Shown here: positions 7,328-15,307 of the stretch, piece after piece
Layout of the letters: each line of letters begins with the position of its first letter
How positions within the stretch are numbered: position 1 is the first letter of the stretch
Source: a virus
Lineage: Duplodnaviria; Heunggongvirae; Uroviricota; Caudoviricetes
Virus record (IMG/VR): IMGVR_UViG_2531839664_000015
Coordinates: 1 to 16,592 of that record
Direction: 5' to 3' (one strand)
DNA: 16,592 nt
The notes under the pieces: model-generated
Seen by the model: only the letters and a program-made list of their open reading frames with translations
The model's database searches: none
Told to the model about the DNA's origin: nothing
Translations under genes and position numbers: made by a program

Positions 7328-7360
7328 TAATATTTCCTCCGACAAAATCGTTTCTCAGAT

Positions 7361-8023
7361 TCAAATAAAACCAGCTGCCTTCCGGCGTTCGTATTCCTGT
7401 TTCAGCCGTTCAATTGGCGTTGGCCCTTGCGGGTGTTTCGCCCCTTCCAGTTGTCGTCGCACTGGCGGAACACTCATCCCGTTACCAACATGCTTTGCCC
7501 ATTTCGTCAGTTGCCGTTCCGCAAGTCGTTTTAACTCACCTTGCGTCATCTGGCGCTCAATCCCTCTGGTACGCATTTCGAGGCAGATGTGGTACAGCAC
7601 AGGCTGTGGCCACGGGTATTTATCACTCCCGTCGTATCGCCAGGATTCATTGCGCCAGCGCCGGTACTCTTCCATCACGGCATCCACCGTAAGACCAAAT
7701 GGATTTGCCCCACTCTCCGAAATCAGCGCAACAAACTCAGCCAGGTCCGGGGGCCACGTTTCACCCGCCCGGCAGCGGTCCATGCACTGACGGCACACCA
7801 GACGGATTTGCTGTTCAGTCATCGCACCAATCTGGGCAATCCAGAGCTTCGAAGGTGCGGCCCCGTTCTTCTGAGTCCAGCGGTTCGAATACACCTCCCC
7901 CATGAGCTCCCACAGCTTCCAGGCCGTTTCCGTTGCTGATAAATCCGTTGTCACGTTCCCACTGTTCGCGTGCAGCCCGGATTTCCTGAACTGCCCGTGA
8001 TGCCGTGCCACCTGATGCTGCAT
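7361..8023 (-). CDS. lambda P-like replication protein (helicase loader)
   Basis: Central and C-terminal blocks resemble lambda P as recalled (TEQQIRLVCRQ..., WPPDLAEFVALISE, VMEEYRRWRNESWRYDGSDKYPWP); ATG with a G-rich ribosome-binding site; sits directly after the O-like gene. Confidence 0.75.
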   Translation of the reverse strand: MQHQVARHHGQFRKSGLHANSGNVTTDLSATETAWKLWELMGEVYSNRWTQKNGAAPSKLWIAQIGAMTEQQIRLVCRQCMDRCRAGETWPPDLAEFVALISESGANPFGLTVDAVMEEYRRWRNESWRYDGSDKYPWPQPVLYHICLEMRTRGIERQMTQGELKRLAERQLTKWAKHVGNGMSVPPVRRQLEGAKHPQGPTPIERLKQEYERRKAAGFI

Positions 8024-8882
8024 GGCTTCCCCCCTTGCTGACTGGTTTTACCTGTGCCCTGACGTGCTGCACGTGGCGGGCAAATTTCTGCTCCCACTGA
8101 ACCTGCGTGAAAACCTTCCCCTCCGCCATCCAGTAATCCCGGAATGCGGCAAGCTCAGCAGGTGTAAATTCCGGCTCAGGCAGAGCCATACCCCACACTG
8201 CTGCCCGTTGTCGAAAATCCGGCGACGGCTGCCAGACAGTAGTCATCGGAAATTTCCCGATCGGTTCGCTCAGGCCGTCCAGGTATTCAGGTTCGGCTGT
8301 CTGCAACGGCGCACCATTCGACTCACTGGTCGGAATACTCTCGCGCGCGTTATGTGTGGGGTTTAATTCTGTATCTGTATCTTTATCTGTATCTTTATCT
8401 GTATCTTTATCTGTATCTTTATCTGTCGTGACTTGTCGTGACAGATGCGTGACACGTCGTGACTCATCGTGACAATCAGCATTATGTTTCCGCAGCTTTT
8501 CCCGCTCCCGCTGCGCTCTCTTGCGCTCTGCCGGGGATTTTGCCGTTTGCGAAACGTTACCATTGTCCTCTTTCAGCACCTGACGTTTTTCCCATCCGGA
8601 AATAAGGTCACCATCCAGAACCCGCCCCTGCATTGCATGCAAAATTGAATCAATTACGTCTTCCGTCACATCAAGCGCACTTGCTAAATCTTCCGTCGTG
8701 ACATCAATGTGACCACGTAGTGACACGCCGTGACATGTCGTGACATTTCGTGACGCACTCACCAGAAGATGGATATACACTGCCATCACTGTTGCGATTG
8801 GCTGTCCTGATACCCTGGCAATCGTTCGCCACTTGGGGTCATTTGGCATGTCATGCCACAATCTGAGCCAGGCATTAGCCAT
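7815..8882 (-). CDS. lambda O-like replication initiator with internal origin repeats
   Basis: 355 aa from the first ATG (the track start at 8888 is GTG). Sits immediately upstream of the P-like gene and contains phased iteron arrays and an AT-rich tandem repeat, as in ori-lambda; the repeat encodes a TDKDTDKD linker. Confidence 0.7.
   Translation of the reverse strand: MANAWLRLWHDMPNDPKWRTIARVSGQPIATVMAVYIHLLVSASRNVTTCHGVSLRGHIDVTTEDLASALDVTEDVIDSILHAMQGRVLDGDLISGWEKRQVLKEDNGNVSQTAKSPAERKRAQREREKLRKHNADCHDESRRVTHLSRQVTTDKDTDKDTDKDTDKDTDTELNPTHNARESIPTSESNGAPLQTAEPEYLDGLSEPIGKFPMTTVWQPSPDFRQRAAVWGMALPEPEFTPAELAAFRDYWMAEGKVFTQVQWEQKFARHVQHVRAQVKPVSKGGSHAASGGTASRAVQEIRAAREQWERDNGFISNGNGLEAVGAHGGGVFEPLDSEERGRTFEALDCPDWCDD
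8370..8423. repeat. AT-rich tandem repeat (hexamer TGTATC, then 4 copies of 12-bp unit TGTATCTTTATC); candidate DNA-unwinding element of the origin
   Basis: Direct reading: tgtatc + (tgtatctttatc) x4, lying next to the iteron array. Confidence 0.8.
8424..8473. repeat. iteron array 1: five CGTGAC direct repeats at 10-11 bp phasing (candidate ori iterons)
   Basis: CGTGAC begins at 8427, 8437, 8448, 8458 and 8468. Confidence 0.8.
8696..8753. repeat. iteron array 2: six GTGAC(A) direct repeats at 10-11 bp phasing
   Basis: GTGAC begins at 8697, 8708, 8719, 8729, 8739 and 8749, inside the 5' part of the O-like gene. Confidence 0.75.
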
Positions 8883-8950
8883 ACTCACCTCTTCTGATAC
8901 CGAACTTTACCCTCGAACATCCGGAAGAAATCCGGCATGAATATTGTTGG

Positions 8951-9376
8951 TCAATGCACGACAACAGCATTACCAGGCTGCCCCCCACTGTTAGTCAGGG
9001 TGCCCCAGGCGATCGCCGCTGCGACAAAATCATCCACATCTTTCACCAGCCGATCCCTCCGTTCGACGATCTCACGGTAATATTCAGAGCTGTGACTGCG
9101 CATACGGGCCACCAGCAGAGGCGGCATTGCCTTTTCGATCGCCGGTAACAGAGCCTGCATTTTTTCAACTGCATCAGGGGTGTCTTTCTCTATCCAGCGG
9201 AAAATTTTCTGGGTATTGCGAGCCAGGGCTTCCGGATGGCTGTCGTCGTACAGTTCAGGAAACGTCATACCCAACTCAAAATAAGCCTGGGTTATTCCAG
9301 CTGCCGGAACTTTTTCGCCATCAGGACGCGCCCAGGCATTCATCGCCATGCGGATGTGTTCATGCTTGATTTTCAT
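8951..9376 (-). CDS. ydaT: YdaT-family protein (cII-slot protein of Rac-type immunity regions)
   Basis: 141 aa from the ATG with a GGGGGGA ribosome-binding site; MKIKHEHIRMAMNAWARPDGEKVPAAGITQAYFELGMTFPELYDDSHPEALARNTQKIFRW... closely matches Rac YdaT as recalled. Confidence 0.85.
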   Translation of the reverse strand: MKIKHEHIRMAMNAWARPDGEKVPAAGITQAYFELGMTFPELYDDSHPEALARNTQKIFRWIEKDTPDAVEKMQALLPAIEKAMPPLLVARMRSHSSEYYREIVERRDRLVKDVDDFVAAAIAWGTLTNSGGQPGNAVVVH

Positions 9377-9602
9377 GAATCCCCCCTTGGTTAGAAGGCG
9401 GATTATGATCAGAATCGGGAATGACAACCGTCGGTATGTGTAACTCATATTTGAGCGCCCCGGCAGTGACTGCCTGAATTAGCAACGCCCATTTCCACGG
9501 AACGTCTTCCCCCCACATGCTGACTGTGGTTTTTGACGTTCCTAGAGCGGCGGCTGTTTTAACAACTCCGCCAAAATAGCCTAATACTTCTGATTTTTTC
9601 AT
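9360..9602 (-). CDS. Cro/YdaS-like helix-turn-helix regulator (80 aa)
   Basis: First gene of the minus-strand early operon, divergent from cI; helix-turn-helix segment VVKTAAALGTSKTTVSMWG; overlaps the ydaT start by 17 nt. Confidence 0.7.
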   Translation of the reverse strand: MKKSEVLGYFGGVVKTAAALGTSKTTVSMWGEDVPWKWALLIQAVTAGALKYELHIPTVVIPDSDHNPPSNQGGIHENQA

Positions 9603-9693
9603 GAGTCGCTCCATAAAACTGAACGCCAAAAGTTTAATAATCAAAACCAAAGAAAGTCAAGAAACAAAACCATCTGTGTTTTAAAATCAAAAC
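9603..9693. promoter_or_regulatory. divergent immunity control region (OR-like) with 18-bp palindrome TGTTTT-N6-AAAACA at 9677-9694
   Basis: 91-bp AT-rich intergenic region between divergent cro-like and cI-like genes; a perfect inverted repeat overlaps the cI start; a second partial palindrome AAAACT-N10-AGTTT lies at about 9616-9636. Confidence 0.5.
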
Positions 9694-10332
9694 ATGAACA
9701 AGCAAACAATATCTGAACGCATAACCCAACGTATGCATGCGCTAAACTTGAAAGGCAAAGACCTTGTCAATGCCACTGGCGCATCAAAAGGCTCCGTAAG
9801 TCAATGGATGAACGGTGGAGGAGCGCCGTCCTCGCGTTACATAAGTTCACTGGCAAAGATATTGAAAGTAAACGAAAATTGGCTTCTTAATGGAGGAGAG
9901 TTAAATACAGGTGATTCGCTTGATCTATCTTTACCGCCGATAAAAACGGTTCCGCTACTATCACTTCAGCAGGCAGCAAGCTGGAGTGATTATATGAAAA
10001 ATTCCTCAATAACCTCTTGTGTGCAGCTTGTCGGAGAAATCCCGGCCAATACCTTTGCTGTTGTTCTAGAGAGTGACAGTATGTCGACATCTGGTGGTGG
10101 AGTTTCCATCCCAAATGGTTCAACAGTTTTTGTTGATCCCGATCGAATCGTACAACCAGGAAATATTGTCCTTGCCTTACCCAAAGGGACCACAACGCCT
10201 GTCATTCGCAAACTGGAGATAGAAGGGCCGGATATTCTTTTAGTCCCCACGAATCCTCGCTACCCTTCAATTATGCTGGATGATCTATCTTGCATATTGG
10301 GAGTATGCTTTAAAATTCAACAAGATATTTAA
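9694..10332 (+). CDS. CI-like phage repressor (N-terminal helix-turn-helix plus C-terminal S24 LexA-like peptidase domain)
   Basis: 212 aa; helix-turn-helix LKGKDLVNATGASKGSVSQW; S24 motifs (AVVLESDSMS with the Ser nucleophile, downstream Lys in IRKLE). Confidence 0.9.
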   Translation: MNKQTISERITQRMHALNLKGKDLVNATGASKGSVSQWMNGGGAPSSRYISSLAKILKVNENWLLNGGELNTGDSLDLSLPPIKTVPLLSLQQAASWSDYMKNSSITSCVQLVGEIPANTFAVVLESDSMSTSGGGVSIPNGSTVFVDPDRIVQPGNIVLALPKGTTTPVIRKLEIEGPDILLVPTNPRYPSIMLDDLSCILGVCFKIQQDI

Positions 10333-10396
10333 CCAACCTCATCTATTTGATTAACTGTATGCCATCGTAGTGATGGCGTAACAGCTGCCTGCTTAA

Positions 10397-10445
10397 AATG
10401 TTTTGATAAAAAAACATTGACCTTAAATGTTCGTTTTTCTAAACT
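10397..10445 (+). promoter_or_regulatory. putative PL-like promoter (-35 TTGACC, 17-bp spacer, -10 TAAACT) overlapped by a second copy of the palindrome (10399-10416)
   Basis: Sigma-70-like hexamers at 10417-10422 and 10440-10445; the palindrome is identical in half-sites and spacing to the one at 9677-9694; a third AATGTT lies in the spacer. Confidence 0.4.
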
Positions 10446-10624
10446 TCATTCATTCCCTCACCCCGCCCCACAGAATGCAGGGCAATACTTCGAGTTACCA
10501 GGCAGTGGTCAGGGGTTAAGTAGCCAGCCCGAGGCGTAAGAACATGACGGCAGGGTTCAACTTTAATAACTATGCAGCAGGTTTTTGTTCCGCTACCCCG
10601 GCGTTAAGGGGAAATGAGGTCAAC

Positions 10625-10777
10625 ATGGATACGCTCAATCTTGGCAACAACGAATCTCTGGTATGTGGCGTGTTCCCCAACCAGGACGGTACGTTCACCG
10701 CGATGACGTATACCAAAAGCAAAACGTTTAAAACTGAAGCTGGCGCGCGTCGCTGGTTAGCCAGAAACACTGACTGA
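10625..10777 (+). CDS. small hypothetical protein (50 aa)
   Basis: ATG with GAGG at 5-nt spacing; stop overlaps the next ORF (TGATG). The 77-aa track ORF has no RBS at its first ATG. Confidence 0.5.
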   Translation: MDTLNLGNNESLVCGVFPNQDGTFTAMTYTKSKTFKTEAGARRWLARNTD

Positions 10778-10788
10778 TGAGGTTGACG

Positions 10789-11427
10789 ATGGAATTTAAA
10801 GATTTACCTCCTTCAATCCAGGAGATTGCAGCACACACACTTCGTCATCGTCTGAACGAACTTGAATTGGAATCGGTAACGAAAAAAGACACTGATAATA
10901 TGGCTCGTAATGTGCGCGATGCGTTTACCGGATTGTATTTCTGTGCGTCTATAAATAAACACGACTCAGAGAGTGTGGCAAATAAAATTGCAGAAACGAC
11001 AGCGCAAAACATCAATACGAAACCAACGGAAGAAGAAATTGATCAGTTTGCTCATGATGCTGGTTTAAAAAACAAGAAAGAAAAATCGCCATATGCGGGG
11101 AACATGTTTGTTTATGACAATCTCATCAGAATTCGTGGCGAAATTCCGGCGGAATACCTGGCAAGAGTCCATCAGGCATTGCTTAAAAATTTGGAAACAG
11201 AATTATTTGATGGCAACACTAACGGTTTCTTCATGGTATCAGGCCTTGAGAAAGACTGGGATGCAGAAAAACGCTGGAATGTTGCTACATGGTTATTCAG
11301 TAACAGAGCCGCTGCACTGGAAGCTTCGGCATGTATTTGCGGCCTGTTCTTAACAGACCACAAATATAATCTGGATGTGTACAGTTATATTTACGCTGAA
11401 CACGGTCCACTCTGGATTGACTGGTAA
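10789..11427 (+). CDS. hypothetical protein (212 aa), unknown function; cargo next to the immunity region
   Basis: ATG with GAGG at 6-nt spacing (the track start at 10777 has no RBS); translationally coupled to the 50-aa ORF; no recognisable motifs. Confidence 0.6.
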   Translation: MEFKDLPPSIQEIAAHTLRHRLNELELESVTKKDTDNMARNVRDAFTGLYFCASINKHDSESVANKIAETTAQNINTKPTEEEIDQFAHDAGLKNKKEKSPYAGNMFVYDNLIRIRGEIPAEYLARVHQALLKNLETELFDGNTNGFFMVSGLEKDWDAEKRWNVATWLFSNRAAALEASACICGLFLTDHKYNLDVYSYIYAEHGPLWIDW

Positions 11428-11637
11428 TTATAAGGAAACACCAGCAGGGCCGCGGCGACCAACAGAACGATTAAAATCAATAATGCCATTATAAAGGACA
11501 TTATTTAATTTATCGTCGAATGCTGATTCTGTGAGCCTCAACTCTGAATGAGTTTTTAATAACCCTGATTGCCTGAGTTGATTTACCAGGCATTCAATCT
11601 GTTTTTCAATAAGCGGATTTCTTTTTTTGTTTGGCAT
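11428..11637 (-). CDS. hypothetical small protein (69 aa), opposite in orientation to the surrounding operon
   Basis: Internal ATG with GGAGGA at 5-nt spacing; converges tail-to-tail with the 212-aa gene (stops adjacent). Confidence 0.45.
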   Translation of the reverse strand: MPNKKRNPLIEKQIECLVNQLRQSGLLKTHSELRLTESAFDDKLNNVLYNGIIDFNRSVGRRGPAGVSL

Positions 11638-12201
11638 TTTATCCTCCATTGAGGTTCTGGGTTAAAAATGGAGACCAACACGCTGTCACGTGTGGTCGTG
11701 CGCCGGACACGGATAAGAATCCGGTACTGACAGTTTACTGAAAGGATATTTCCCTGAAAAGTCAGTGCATAACGCGAAAGCGTACGGCGAAGCTCTTTCC
11801 CTTAGAAGGCTTGTCGTTAGATTTCTTCGAACGTGCGCTTCCGGTTGTGGCACTCCGCGAAATGGCGCGGCGGTAAGTATGGCGGGGTTATTCCTTCCCC
11901 ATTGAGGACACCGGGTTGTCAGGTTGACCATACGCTTAAGTGACAACCCCGCTGCAACGCCCTCTGTTATCAATTTTCTGGTGACGTTTGGCGGTATCAG
12001 TTTTACTCCGTGGCTGCTCTGCCGCCCTTTTTAAAGTGAATTTTGTGATGCGGTGAATGCGGCTAAGCGCACGCGGAACAGTTAAAACCAAAAACAGTGT
12101 TATGGGTGGATTCTCTGTATCCGGCGTTAATTGTTAACTGGTTAACGTCACCTGGAGGCACCAGGCACTGCATCACAAAATTCATTGTTGAGGACGCGAT
12201 A

Positions 12202-12390
12202 ATGGAAACGTTATTACCAAACGTTAATACGTCTGAAGGTTGTTTTGATATTGGTGTTCTGCTCAGTAACCGGGAGTTTACTGAAGATGCCATTAACATG
12301 AGGAAATATGAGCCTTATCTGCTCAATGATAATTCCATACTTTCCCGAATTGCTCTTCTTGAACTTGGTATTTTCGGAGAACGTCAATGA
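12202..12390 (+). CDS. small hypothetical protein (62 aa)
   Basis: ATG at 12202 with GAGGA at 7-nt spacing, shorter than the track ORF. Confidence 0.45.
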   Translation: METLLPNVNTSEGCFDIGVLLSNREFTEDAINMRKYEPYLLNDNSILSRIALLELGIFGERQ

Positions 12391-12575
12391 CTTCAGCATT
12401 TGCACTGATGATGACGGTTTTTCTTATAACGGGTGAATCACAGAATGTGATTACCGGAATTTATGCCAGTAAAGAATCCTGCCTCCAGGCAAGAGACGAG
12501 CAAAAAATTTCTGGTGAATGCCTCCCGGTAAAAAAAGTATCGCTGTACCTGAATAACGAAACACCGGCTGGATAA
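12387..12575 (+). CDS. small hypothetical protein (62 aa) with hydrophobic N-terminus
   Basis: ATGA overlap with the preceding ORF (translational coupling); N-terminal MTSAFALMMTVFLITG is signal or transmembrane-like. Confidence 0.45.
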   Translation: MTSAFALMMTVFLITGESQNVITGIYASKESCLQARDEQKISGECLPVKKVSLYLNNETPAG

Positions 12576-12667
12576 CCCTCCAGCCATATTAACACCATAC
12601 CAACGGATTAAAAATGCCAGCAATGGCAGGGATTTGTTCACCCTTAAATCTGTAATGAGGTTTATCA

Positions 12668-15130
12668 ATGAGCACTGATAAAGAAGAATTTGCGCTATAT
12701 TGCGAAGCAAAAAATGACAAAGTCAGAAAACGTCTGGGAATTAAAGGTGGTTTTTACTGGACTACAGCAAAAAAATTATCTGTTGCCATCTCCCGCTGCA
12801 TTACCGCAATGGATGACAACGATTATGATGAAGACGACTTTAAAAAACCCGTTCGCGTCCATTTACCCGTTGTGAATGACCTTCCACCTGAAGGCGTGTT
12901 TGATACCGAATTCTGCAACCGATACGAAAAAGGCGGGGAAGATGGCATTACAATGGTATTTATCGCGCCCTCTCCCTCCGTGCAGGAGAAACCAGCCAGT
13001 ACTGACAATACCAACGTCAACGGCGAAGACATGACGGAGATTGAGGAGAATATGCTCCTGCCGGTTTCTGGTCAGGAGCTGCCCATTCGCTGGCTTGCGC
13101 AACACGGCAGCGAAAAACCAGTAACGCACGTTGCACGGGAAGAACTTCAGGCATTACATATAGCACGGGCGGAAGAACTGCCGGCTGTTACTGCCCTGGC
13201 CATTTCTCACAAAACAAAGCTGCTCGACCCGCTGGAGATTCGCGACCTTCACAAACTGGTACGCGACACTGACAAAGTTTTCCCTAATCCCGGTAATTCA
13301 GACCTGGGACTGATAACTGCTTTTTTCGAGGCATACCTGGACGCTGACTACACTGATCGGGGTCTGCTGACAAAAGAGTGGATGAAAGGAAATCGTGTTT
13401 CGCGTATCACCCGTACGGCTTCCGGTGCAAATGCCGGTGGCGGGAACAAAACCGATCGCAATCCGAATTTAGTACACACCTTCGATACGCTGGATGTGGA
13501 GATTGCAGCAGCCACACTTCCGATGGATTTTAATATTTATGAAATTCCGGGCAGCGTTTATCGTCGCGCAAAAGAAATCGTCCTGAAAAGAGAAAGTCCG
13601 TTCAAAGAATGGTCCGCAGCACTTCGCGCAACCCCGGGTATTCTGGACTATTCCCGCGCCGCTATTTTTGCACTTATCCGGAGCGCTCACCCTGAGTTTT
13701 ATCACTACCCGGGACGCCTTCAGGGGTATATCAACGCCTACTTAACGGAGACTGATCACGAGAACCCCAGCAAGGAAACTCTCACTGCTGCACGACATAC
13801 ACCGGAAAAAGATATCCTGGAAGAAGTTAACCGCGAACTGTCTGCTAAGCAGGAAACAGAAGAAGAAGAAAATGATGAAGAAAAACCGCAACCATCTTGC
13901 GCAATGGCAGATGAACAGGCAACGGCTGAAACAGTGGAACCGGATGCAACTGAACATCATCAGGACACGCAGCCGCTGGATGCTCAGTCACAGGTAAATT
14001 CTGTTGATGCGAAATATCAGAAACTGCGGGCAGAACTCCATGAAGCCCGGAAAAACATTCCGCCCCAAAATCCTGTCGATGCAGACAAATTACTGGCTGC
14101 CTCTCGCGGAGAATTTGTTGAAGGGATTAGCGACCCGAATGATCCGAAATGGATTAAGGGGATCCAGACCCGCGATTCTGTGTACCAGAACCAGCAAGAA
14201 ACGGAACAGAACGACCAGAAAGCGGAACAAAACAGCCCAAATGCGTTACAAAACGAGCCAGAAACGAAACAGCCTGAACCAGTGGCGCAACAGGAAGTGG
14301 AAAAAGTCTGCACCGCCTGCGGTCAGACCGGCGGCGGCAACTGCCCTGATTGTGGCGCGGTGATGGGCGACGCAACATACCAGGAAACCTTCGATGACAA
14401 GAACCTGGTTGAAGTTCAGGAAGACGATTCGGAGAAAATGGAAGGCGCTGAACATCCACACAAGGAGAATGCTGGCAGCGCTCAGGACCACGCCAGCGAT
14501 AGTGAAACTGGCGAGACGGCAGATCCCTTAATTACGGTGAACGGTCATCACGTTATCACATCCACCAGCAGGACGTGTGACCATCTAATGATCGACCTTG
14601 AAACCATGGGAAAAAATCCTGATGCCCCGATTATCTCAATAGGTGCAATATTTTTCGATCCGCAAACCGGAGATATGGGACCGGAATTTAGTAAGACTAT
14701 CGATCTGGAAACTGCTGGCGGAGTCATTGATCGGGACACCATTAAATGGTGGCTTAAGCAATCACGCGAAGCGCAATCTGCCATTATGACCGATGAAATC
14801 CCGTTAGATGATGCACTGTTACAATTGCGGGAATTTATCGACGAAAACTCCGGTGAATTTTTTGTTCAGGTCTGGGGAAATGGAGCCAACTTCGACAACA
14901 CGATTTTGCGCCGTTCATACGAACGGCAGGGGATCCCCTGCCCGTGGCGTTACTACAACGATCGCGATGTGCGCACAATCGTTGAGCTGGGGAAAGCCAT
15001 AGACTTCGATGCCAGAACGGCTATTCCATTCGAAGGTGAGCGCCATAATGCACTTGATGACGCCCGTTACCAGGCAAAATACGTTTCAGTTATCTGGCAA
15101 AAACTGATCCCGAGTCAGGCTGATTCTTAA
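12668..15130 (+). CDS. RecE-like (exodeoxyribonuclease VIII-like) protein with C-terminal DEDDh/DnaQ-like 3'-5' exonuclease domain
   Basis: 820 aa; ATG with an AATGAGG ribosome-binding site. N-terminal and central segments resemble the non-catalytic region of Rac RecE as recalled; acidic linker; CxxC...CxxC zinc-ribbon ([16 protein letters not shown]). The C-terminal ~190 aa carry the three DEDDh motifs DLETMG, GNGANFD and HNALDDA. Confidence 0.8.
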
Positions 15131-15201
15131 TGTTCAACTGTCGCCGGTTGTGACTGGTATTCTGCAACCGGCGCTCGTCTGATGTAAGAGATAAAGAAGC
15201 G

Positions 15202-15243
15202 ATGAGCGAAGTAATCATGATTGTCTCTCCCGGCAAATGGGTA
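15202..15243 (+). pseudogene. 5' fragment (14 codons) of a small ORF interrupted by the IS element
   Basis: ATG at 15202 (MSEVIMIVSPGKWV) runs into the IS left end; the same frame continues after the IS (SEEQLIALKGIKKGTLKKAREKSFMEG...) once one copy of the GTA duplication is removed. Confidence 0.5.
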
Positions 15244-15307
15244 TGAGGTAGCCTGAGTTTAACGGACACTCCTTCCTGAAATAGAATGGCATCAGAAGGA
15301 GCTAATA

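Follow-up and report, generated by a model that had tools for sequence, protein, structure and literature searches.

The closest described relative of the locus considered here is the dicBF operon (ydfABC-dicF-dicB-ydfD) of the Qin prophage of Escherichia coli K-12, which, according to the literature, starts at a repressor-controlled PL-like promoter upstream of a ydfA-like gene. Its polycistronic transcript from dicBp gives rise to an RNase III-dependent species of about 190 nt and to the RNase E-dependent DicF, a small RNA (sRNA) of 53 nt, and most transcripts end at the DicF terminator, yielding a 1,146-nt species (PMC10448788). A 72-nt form of DicF acquires its 3' end when RNase III cuts read-through transcripts (PMC5069750; PMC9438474). 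Together with Hfq, DicF is known to pair with the ftsZ, xylR, pykA and manX mRNAs and, in enterohaemorrhagic E. coli (EHEC), with the pchA mRNA; the product of the K-12 dicB gene blocks cell division through MinC. EHEC strains are reported to carry four dicF copies (PMC7873438). Here, we analyse a 16,592-nt stretch of viral DNA (Caudoviricetes; IMG/VR record IMGVR_UViG_2531839664_000015, positions 1 to 16,592), hereafter the window, in which an earlier, sequence-only reading had singled out positions 11428-12201: a 69-amino-acid (aa) gene of opposite orientation followed by about 550 bp of GC-rich sequence poor in open reading frames (ORFs) within an early-left operon, possibly holding a structured RNA, an antitermination site or a regulatory hub. 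The gene-free stretch is the dicBF locus encoding DicF, and as such it is already known. What is new with respect to Rfam 15 and the searchable literature is the covariation-supported architecture of an RNA domain that precedes DicF, together with its occurrence outside E. coli, phage P1 included, and the variation of the cassettes behind it.

We regard it as nearly certain that what lies here is an early-left operon of dicBF type in a Qin-like lambdoid prophage of EHEC, with the segment as its untranslated core. The covariance-model scan for RNA families that had been proposed along with the sequence-only reading found the sRNA: Rfam RF00039 matches positions 11976-12027 of the plus strand over the whole model (positions 1-52 of 52) at 75.0 bits, against a threshold of 48. 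Aligned with the K-12 dicF annotation, from which the 5' end at 11975 was mapped, 52 of the 53 nt are identical; the single change, A to G at 12014, lies in the terminator hairpin. The intrinsic terminator of DicF comprises a stem at 11990-12026 and a U run (TTTTT) at 12028-12032, and the putative seed sequences for ftsZ, xylR, pykA and manX are retained in the window copy.

The setting is likewise that of a dicBF operon: dicB starts 175 nt downstream, a DUF1391 gene and a cI-like repressor gene lie upstream, and DUF1482 and RecE genes lie downstream. On the plus strand the order runs from the cI-like repressor gene through the YdfA-like gene, the cargo, dicF, dicB and the ydfD-like gene to the recE-like gene, which bears out the early-left operon assumed before; the occurrence of dicF, dicB, DUF1391 and DUF1482 in the K-12 gene order supports the dicBF assignment. 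Over 11300-12700 the window matches O157:H7, O26 and O121 chromosomes at 100% identity, a related stretch is present in 4744 of 5426 complete E. coli genomes, and identity to K-12 Qin is about 93% from 11697 through dicB. The K-12 layout is the same: 340 nt devoid of genes separate ydfC from dicF, and the spacer up to dicB measures 174 nt. The two operons thus share their gene order from the repressor side through the recE-like gene, as well as the leader and the spacer, but differ in the slot occupied by ydfB and ydfC in K-12, in the repressor (the short DicA in K-12, a LexA/S24-type cI in the window) and in RecE, which is intact in the window.

The description of about 550 bp as GC-rich and ORF-poor also holds. 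Between 11650 and 12201 there is no convincing ORF, the candidates being TTG- or GTG-initiated frames of 36-46 aa that lack a ribosome-binding site; homologues of the stretch differ by insertions or deletions of 1 nt and 4-5 nt, and the GC content is 0.48-0.51 against 0.40-0.43 in both flanks. Predicted folding of 11690-12210 is strong (z = -4.66). Relative GC richness and strong folding are both expected of a structured RNA, and the identity of the locus accounts for a GC-rich gene-free stretch inside an early-left operon. The suggestion of a structured RNA proved right, since the segment holds DicF, a covariation-supported junction upstream of it and the folded 5' untranslated region (5' UTR) of dicB downstream; that of a regulatory hub is borne out in its general form, as the leader of a dicBF operon with these elements. 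Within the leader, the 5' part is variable: homology to most other dicF loci restarts at 11697 or 11768, and one hypervariable patch differs in nearly every lineage. A comparison of 11650-11975 with all Rfam families (cmscan, expectation value (E) <= 10) returned no ribozyme, riboswitch or sRNA match. Taken as given, the finding re-identifies one of several known EHEC dicF copies, and little changes; the practical point is that dicF is missing at this copy from the RefSeq record examined.

Between the variable part of the leader and DicF lies a conserved RNA domain, which we call element A. RNAalifold, applied unaided to 28 diverse sequences, predicted a four-way junction consisting of a closing helix (P1) and three arms, and 97.3% of the cells of the junction alignment are paired. 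Both sides had changed in 11 of the 30 pairs, compared with 1-3 in register-shifted controls and 0/500 shuffles. The covariation is located in P1, in P4 and in the distal hairpin of P3, whereas P2 and the base of P3, being invariant, give no such support. The comparative set is biased by the search patterns used to collect it, and P2, P3 and the pseudoknot hardly vary in it. This pseudoknot, predicted between GUAUGG in the internal loop of P3 and its exact complement CCAUAC in the terminal loop of P4, is probable: the pseudoknot position that the search patterns left free is U-A in 24 sequences, C-G in two and U-G in two, and in a DicF-anchored set, where nothing was imposed on the two boxes, there are two changes among 64 unique sequences, one of them a wobble. 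With a covariance model built from the alignment (R1), 11841-11965 reaches 142 bits, and the rest of the 16.6-kb window, the cro-side operon included, yields no further copy. The junction domain matches no Rfam family at E <= 10.

The domain is not tied to DicF. By BLAST, 11844-11966 recurs independently of DicF in Stx2c phages, in Ayreon and 2H10 (88%) and in the ban leader of phage P1 (78%), where the record labels the site a 'dicF-like region'. Pattern scans added more than 120 viral contigs and also reached Citrobacter, Serratia, Erwinia, Izhakiella, Trabulsiella and other Escherichia species. In phage P1 (NC_005856 68791-68892) the junction domain, about 78% identical over 95 nt, stands directly downstream of Pban and a strong terminator comes after it, as in the dicF leader; this copy differs in that it lacks the DicF seed and terminator, in the sequence and lower strength of its closing helix, and in the genes that follow, which are tRNA genes and ban rather than dicB.

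What follows the domain is exchangeable. Of 91 unique instances, 85 were scored as having an intrinsic terminator at a distance of 60-145 nt downstream of the CAGGTTGACCAT box; five of the six missed by the terminator scan visibly have one, the window included, and the sixth is a decayed Shigella copy. The terminator and the stretch that joins it to the domain fall into at least nine unrelated types with 33 distinct hairpin sequences, DicF being one type. The alternative cassettes at 14 other loci match nothing in Rfam, except for one that scores as DicF. Tentatively, and at a little less than even odds, we read the domain, which occurs in lambdoid and P1-like phages and in prophages of Escherichia, Citrobacter, Serratia, Erwinia, Izhakiella and Trabulsiella, as an uncatalogued RNA module of temperate phages that resides in repressor-controlled early operons, always directly upstream of an exchangeable cassette of a single-stranded seed and an intrinsic terminator. 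DicF would then belong to a family of phage RNAs that have the 5' body in common and differ in their seeds. The body would have a generic task and would serve sRNA maturation or stability, or would control terminator read-through.

Several further features were seen at these loci. In all non-DicF lineages a boxA-like word, (A/G)TGCTCT(C/T), is fixed 6 nt before P1, while the sequence farther upstream is unrelated; it was located at about 2487-2499 of locus L127 and just 5' of the domain in L189, L191, L192, L135 and L140. The window has a degenerate GTGCGCTTCC at the corresponding position (11833-11842), and phage P1 has no similar word. The terminators of Erwinia, Trabulsiella, Izhakiella and Serratia enclose a Shine-Dalgarno sequence and a mini-ORF beginning MFYR or MFCR (L191 at about 4690-4760; also L189, L192, L180 and L140), of 11 to about 30 codons and without further conservation, which looks like a translation-sensitive terminator. 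In the decayed Shigella flexneri copy (L183, CP182556) the 5' half of P1 is replaced by unrelated sequence and the DicF terminator is destroyed, and the spacer structure is partly kept. Two of the phages that carry the domain have isrK and C4 antisense RNA genes adjacent to each other, both above the Rfam threshold (L127 40-228, minus strand; L152 1171-1359, plus strand).

On the K-12 model, transcription of the locus would start at a PL-like repressor-controlled promoter, cross the cargo genes and enter the leader. The species of about 190 nt would be released in an RNase III-dependent manner, and RNase E would produce the 53-nt DicF from it; the 3' end of DicF would come from its own Rho-independent terminator, and RNAs that read through, cut by RNase III, would give the 72-nt form. 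Read-through transcripts would carry dicB. Counting back from the DicF 3' end (12027-190+1) gives 11838, 6 nt before P1, so the 190-nt species would be essentially the domain plus DicF. Only the size of this species was used here, as the RNase III site numbered '813/814' in PMC10448788 is untied to genome coordinates, the transcript lengths giving 333 nt.

In this scheme the junction domain may be a generic 5' body that stabilizes the precursor, fixes the RNase E site and presents the exchangeable seed-and-terminator cassette. The 5' end predicted for DicF falls in the AU-rich loop of a small hairpin (arms 11965-11972 and 11979-11986). RNase E cleaves 3' of tRNAs, and structure-guided RNase E maturation of 3'-UTR-derived or intra-operonic sRNAs has reportedly been described for MicL by Updegrove et al.; by analogy, the locus would present a stable fold followed at once by an AU-rich site at which RNase E sets the 5' end of the sRNA. 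With tRNA itself the domain has only the cloverleaf topology, a closing helix and three arms, in common. A tRNA-like identity was considered and rejected: ARAGORN reported only the tRNAs at 22-98 and 199-274 of the window, the Rfam tRNA model was silent at 11844-11958, and there is neither a T-loop nor a conserved CCA after P1.

We give the scaffold role somewhat less than an even chance, and a number of observations weigh against the account as a whole. P1 competes with other pairings in the minimum-free-energy (MFE) fold of the whole precursor, and the loops and junctions of the domain are far more conserved than a mere cleavage signal needs. Since 190 nt is a size read from a gel, the agreement of the 5' end with P1 is approximate. 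Transcription of the dicF copy in the window is modelled on K-12, and the copy is unannotated in the RefSeq record examined. In addition, a convergent gene within the operon could disturb transcription in ways that K-12 does not model. If the domain is nevertheless a shared chassis, new phage regulatory RNAs could be found by searching for the chassis and reading the cassette, and it would offer a defined object for studying how intra-operonic sRNAs are precisely excised.

A competing explanation holds that the domain is a cis element controlling termination, either a put- or nut-like antiterminator or a riboswitch-like sensor, which would let RNA polymerase from the repressor-controlled early promoter pass the DicF terminator and continue into dicB, recE and farther genes, with the sRNA as a by-product. 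We judge this unlikely. In its favour, the domain comes, in every context found, after a repressor gene and an early promoter and directly before an intrinsic terminator ahead of early genes: cI, promoter, domain, terminator and early genes in Ayreon; the C1-controlled Pban, domain, terminator, tRNAs and ban in phage P1; and repressor, domain, terminator, xis and int in Citrobacter, with Erwinia likewise an example. The near-constant terminator counted above fits as well, as do the lack of an N-like gene between the promoter region and dicF and the boxA-like word directly 5' of the domain in non-DicF lineages, despite their unrelated upstream sequences. Loops and junctions that are nearly invariant from phage P1 to Erwinia, together with the probable pseudoknot, are what binding to a conserved host machine or a ligand would lead one to expect. 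Were the domain to control the terminator, early antitermination by RNA alone, so far represented by HK022 put, would gain a second kind of device, and it would explain how dicB, recE, xis/int and the P1 ban gene are expressed in phages without an N gene. The resemblance to HK022 put and lambda nutL, however, is one of position, in an early operon after a repressor-controlled promoter and before the first terminators, and, for put, of a folded RNA with highly conserved unpaired bases. HK022 put comprises two stem-loops of about 70 nt in left and right copies, whereas the window has one four-helix junction of about 115 nt, in a single R1 copy and with none on the rightward (cro) side of the prophage. 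The proposed comparison with put regions found no match: blastn of the leader against the HK022 immunity region (word size 7) gave only hits with E > 1, outside put, an R1 search with filters off was negative at putL and putR, and the short words shared by eye occur in a different order. Moreover, inspection of the cassettes revealed no alternative pairing of the domain with the varied terminators that is conserved, the DicF terminator is reported to stop most K-12 transcripts, the boxA-like word has degenerated in the window and is absent in phage P1, and the cassettes resemble sRNA seeds, with DicF a proven trans-acting sRNA. A terminator/antiterminator switch in which the invariant GGCGCGGCGG box pairs with the terminator 3' arms was examined separately and rejected, as the complementarity is 5-6 nt and is not kept across cassette types. 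The probability left over by the scaffold and read-through models belongs to something else.

Two other explanations are far less probable still. One takes a GCTCTTT word as boxA and the segment as a lambda-type nut site served by an N-like protein, which we consider extremely improbable. The word indeed occurs on the transcribed strand of the early-left operon, at 11792-11798 instead of the 11795-11801 given by the sequence-only reading, but it is not a boxA: it occurs five times in the window against 2.4 expected, a count reached by 21 of 200 shuffles, it is absent from the K-12 copy, and it sits in the hypervariable patch. Being at chance frequency and unconserved, it is best taken as a chance match. 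A lambda nut site needs boxA, boxB and N, none of which was found in the window; the sequence just past GCTCTTT offers only a 4-bp stem with a 2-nt loop and no boxB-like hairpin, the operon ORFs include no arginine-rich N-like protein, and GCTCTTT is no conserved lambda-type boxA (CGCTCTTA / TGCTCTTTA) at a fixed place in the relatives. With the put comparison also negative, the antitermination cue of the sequence-only reading is not supported. The other explanation, which we would all but dismiss, makes the ORF-poor stretch a decayed coding gene such as a dead ydfC. K-12 does have ydfC upstream of dicF, and the stretch contains several short GTG or TTG ORFs; yet in K-12 the homology with the window starts only about 60 nt past the end of ydfC, and the homologous 500 nt are gene-free there too. 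Relatives thus do not show the coding gene at this place that the sequence-only reading had named as a possible refutation. The gene-free leader is shared by K-12 Qin and more than 100 loci, whose differences are the short indels noted above and compensatory base-pair changes rather than codon-wise variation, and the short ORFs begin inside conserved RNA helices without a ribosome-binding site.

The spacer between dicF and dicB, element C, forms the dicB 5' UTR and has a fold of its own. Three hairpins lie inside a closing duplex of about 21 bp (12035-12055 / 12166-12186): one that is small and distal, a second at 12123-12132 / 12140-12149 and a third at 12151-12155 / 12161-12165; the dicB Shine-Dalgarno sequence (GAGGA, 12190-12194) follows a few bases past the duplex. 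The second hairpin carries the quasi-palindrome GTTAAC-TG-GTTAAC, which is real and nearly invariant in homologues (one occurrence against 0.00 expected), though it lies at 12133-12146 and not, as first given, at 12122-12135; the third is the CCTGG/CCAGG hairpin of the sequence-only reading, also genuine and conserved. The 3' end of the 72-nt DicF form maps to about 12046, within the duplex's 5' arm, a place at which RNase III would be expected to cut.

The spacer aligns (12025-12234) with the complete Rfam STnc100 model (RF02076) at 34.7 bits (E = 1.3e-5), and since this is below the threshold of 47 bits, it is treated as a structural relative and not as a member. STnc100 and PasD have been described as related prophage sRNAs (bioRxiv 10.64898/2026.05.13.724894). 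With STnc100 the spacer has in common the long closing stem, a GGUGAAU box, a hairpin located where the GTTAAC palindrome lies, and the CCNGGAGGCACCNGG hairpin; compensatory differences from STnc100 occur in both hairpins, that in the CCNGGAGGCACCNGG hairpin being U-A versus G-C. STnc100, however, is a stand-alone sRNA near the Q gene, whereas the spacer is an internal 5' UTR in which no terminator of its own was seen. Downstream of the STnc100-like 5' UTR, dicB can also be replaced by at least two other genes, whose products begin MLNVAIENQNGW... and MIAHHFGTDE... (loci L048, L152, L162 and L183, and L026, L028 and L170), so this UTR, too, is a portable module.

Table 1. Features of the dicBF-type locus in window coordinates
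Feature	Position	Strand	Basis or remarks
cI-like repressor gene, LexA/S24-type, 212 aa	9694-10332	+	Peptidase_S24 plus helix-turn-helix (HTH)
ydfA-like gene (DUF1391), first gene of early-left operon	10544-10777	+	Pfam PF07151, E 1.2e-29; Prokaryotic Genome Annotation Pipeline (PGAP) on identical O157:H7 locus
216-aa cargo gene	10777-11427	+	phrog_2151 (unknown function), E 1.9e-147
69-aa gene convergent with operon, moron-like cargo	11428-11637	-	phrog_4274, E 1.4e-51
Variable 5' part of dicF leader	11650-11843	+	optional long hairpin 11724-11768, GAAA-loop hairpin, hypervariable patch ~11785-11815
Element A, conserved four-way-junction RNA domain	11844-11958	+	RNAalifold, covariation, covariance model
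Helix P1 (closing)	11844-11851 / 11951-11958	+	RNAalifold
Helix P2	11855-11859 / 11866-11870	+	RNAalifold
Helix P3, variable distal hairpin	11871-11874 / 11910-11913	+	RNAalifold
Candidate pseudoknot, GUAUGG with CCAUAC	11877-11882 / 11928-11933	+	pair counts
Helix P4	11915-11924 / 11934-11947	+	RNAalifold
Small hairpin with 6-nt loop AUUUUC holding the DicF 5' end position (11975)	11965-11986	+	MFE fold of 11838-12032
DicF sRNA, 53 nt	11975-12027	+	Rfam RF00039; K-12 ncRNA annotation b1574 aligned
Element C, folded spacer (dicB 5' UTR)	12033-12201	+	consensus fold of 13 variants; sub-threshold STnc100 match
dicB, 62-aa cell-division inhibitor	12202-12390	+	Pfam PF05358, E 6.4e-37, full length; PGAP 'cell division inhibition protein DicB'
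ydfD-like gene (DUF1482)	12387-12575	+	Pfam PF07358, E 2.9e-15; PGAP
RecE-like exonuclease VIII gene, 820 aa, next in early-left operon	12668-15130	+	NCBIfam NF007259; PGAP 'RecE family exodeoxyribonuclease'

Among the protein-coding neighbours (Table 1), the ydfA-like gene, for which PGAP calls a shorter form (10625-10777), belongs to a block kept in almost all dicF loci, and the RecE-like gene matches NF007259 with E = 3.4e-301, yet below the curated cut-off. A slot of varying content separates the ydfA-like gene from the dicF leader: it is filled by ydfB and ydfC in K-12, by the 216-aa gene and the convergent 69-aa gene in the window, and by a 137-aa gene with a different convergent gene of 105 aa at locus L016. 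Across this slot (window 10777-11697; L016 3009-3699; L002 2166-2542), the forward genes share the N-terminus MRLTMEFKDLP... and differ in their bodies. A small convergent gene follows the forward cargo gene in some lineages, with two unrelated types seen.

The oppositely oriented 69-aa gene is real. The minus-strand frame is open over 11428-11649 and would give 73 aa from its first ATG, but the likely start is the ATG at 11637, which has a GGAGGA Shine-Dalgarno sequence 5 nt upstream and is the start that PGAP uses (WP_001133037.1). Frame and length are kept in three relatives at 83-86% DNA identity, where variable sites fall 11 times at codon position 3, four times at position 1 and five times at position 2; the kept frame and the excess at position 3 indicate a truly coding ORF. 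The protein has 36 relatives among 5.8 billion proteins, all 'hypothetical' and from Escherichia and Salmonella; neither Pfam nor NCBIfam gives a match, phrog_4274 is a family of unknown function, and tblastn found nothing in the phage collection. The 216-aa protein also has no Pfam or NCBIfam match and no tblastn hit among phages, and the functional search of the 5.8-billion-protein set yielded 'hypothetical' only for both proteins. We infer that the 69-aa gene is mosaic cargo, unrelated to dicF, in the variable slot between ydfA and the leader. A hydrophobic 36-aa ORF on the minus strand (11391-11501; MSFIMALLILIVLLVAAALLVF...) overlaps the ends of both convergent genes and is open in relatives. 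It was rejected as a type I toxin, with 13 substitutions at its codon position 2 against 6 and 7 at the others; position 2 of this ORF is position 3 of the 69-aa frame, which makes it a by-product of that frame.

The RefSeq record of the identical O157:H7 locus (L001 12339-12902, corresponding to window 11638-12201) lists no dicF ncRNA, and the locus tag RS10820 is absent from its series. Elsewhere in the window, the nin-like region of the prophage contains a hok/sok type I toxin-antitoxin locus at 4568-4742 on the minus strand (Rfam sok, 113.5 bits), with a Hok/Gef gene just downstream on the same strand. The two prophage tRNA genes are both on the minus strand and were assigned by ARAGORN as Arg(tct) and Met(cat); in the PGAP annotation the second is tRNA-Ile, that is, one with a lysidine-modified CAT anticodon.

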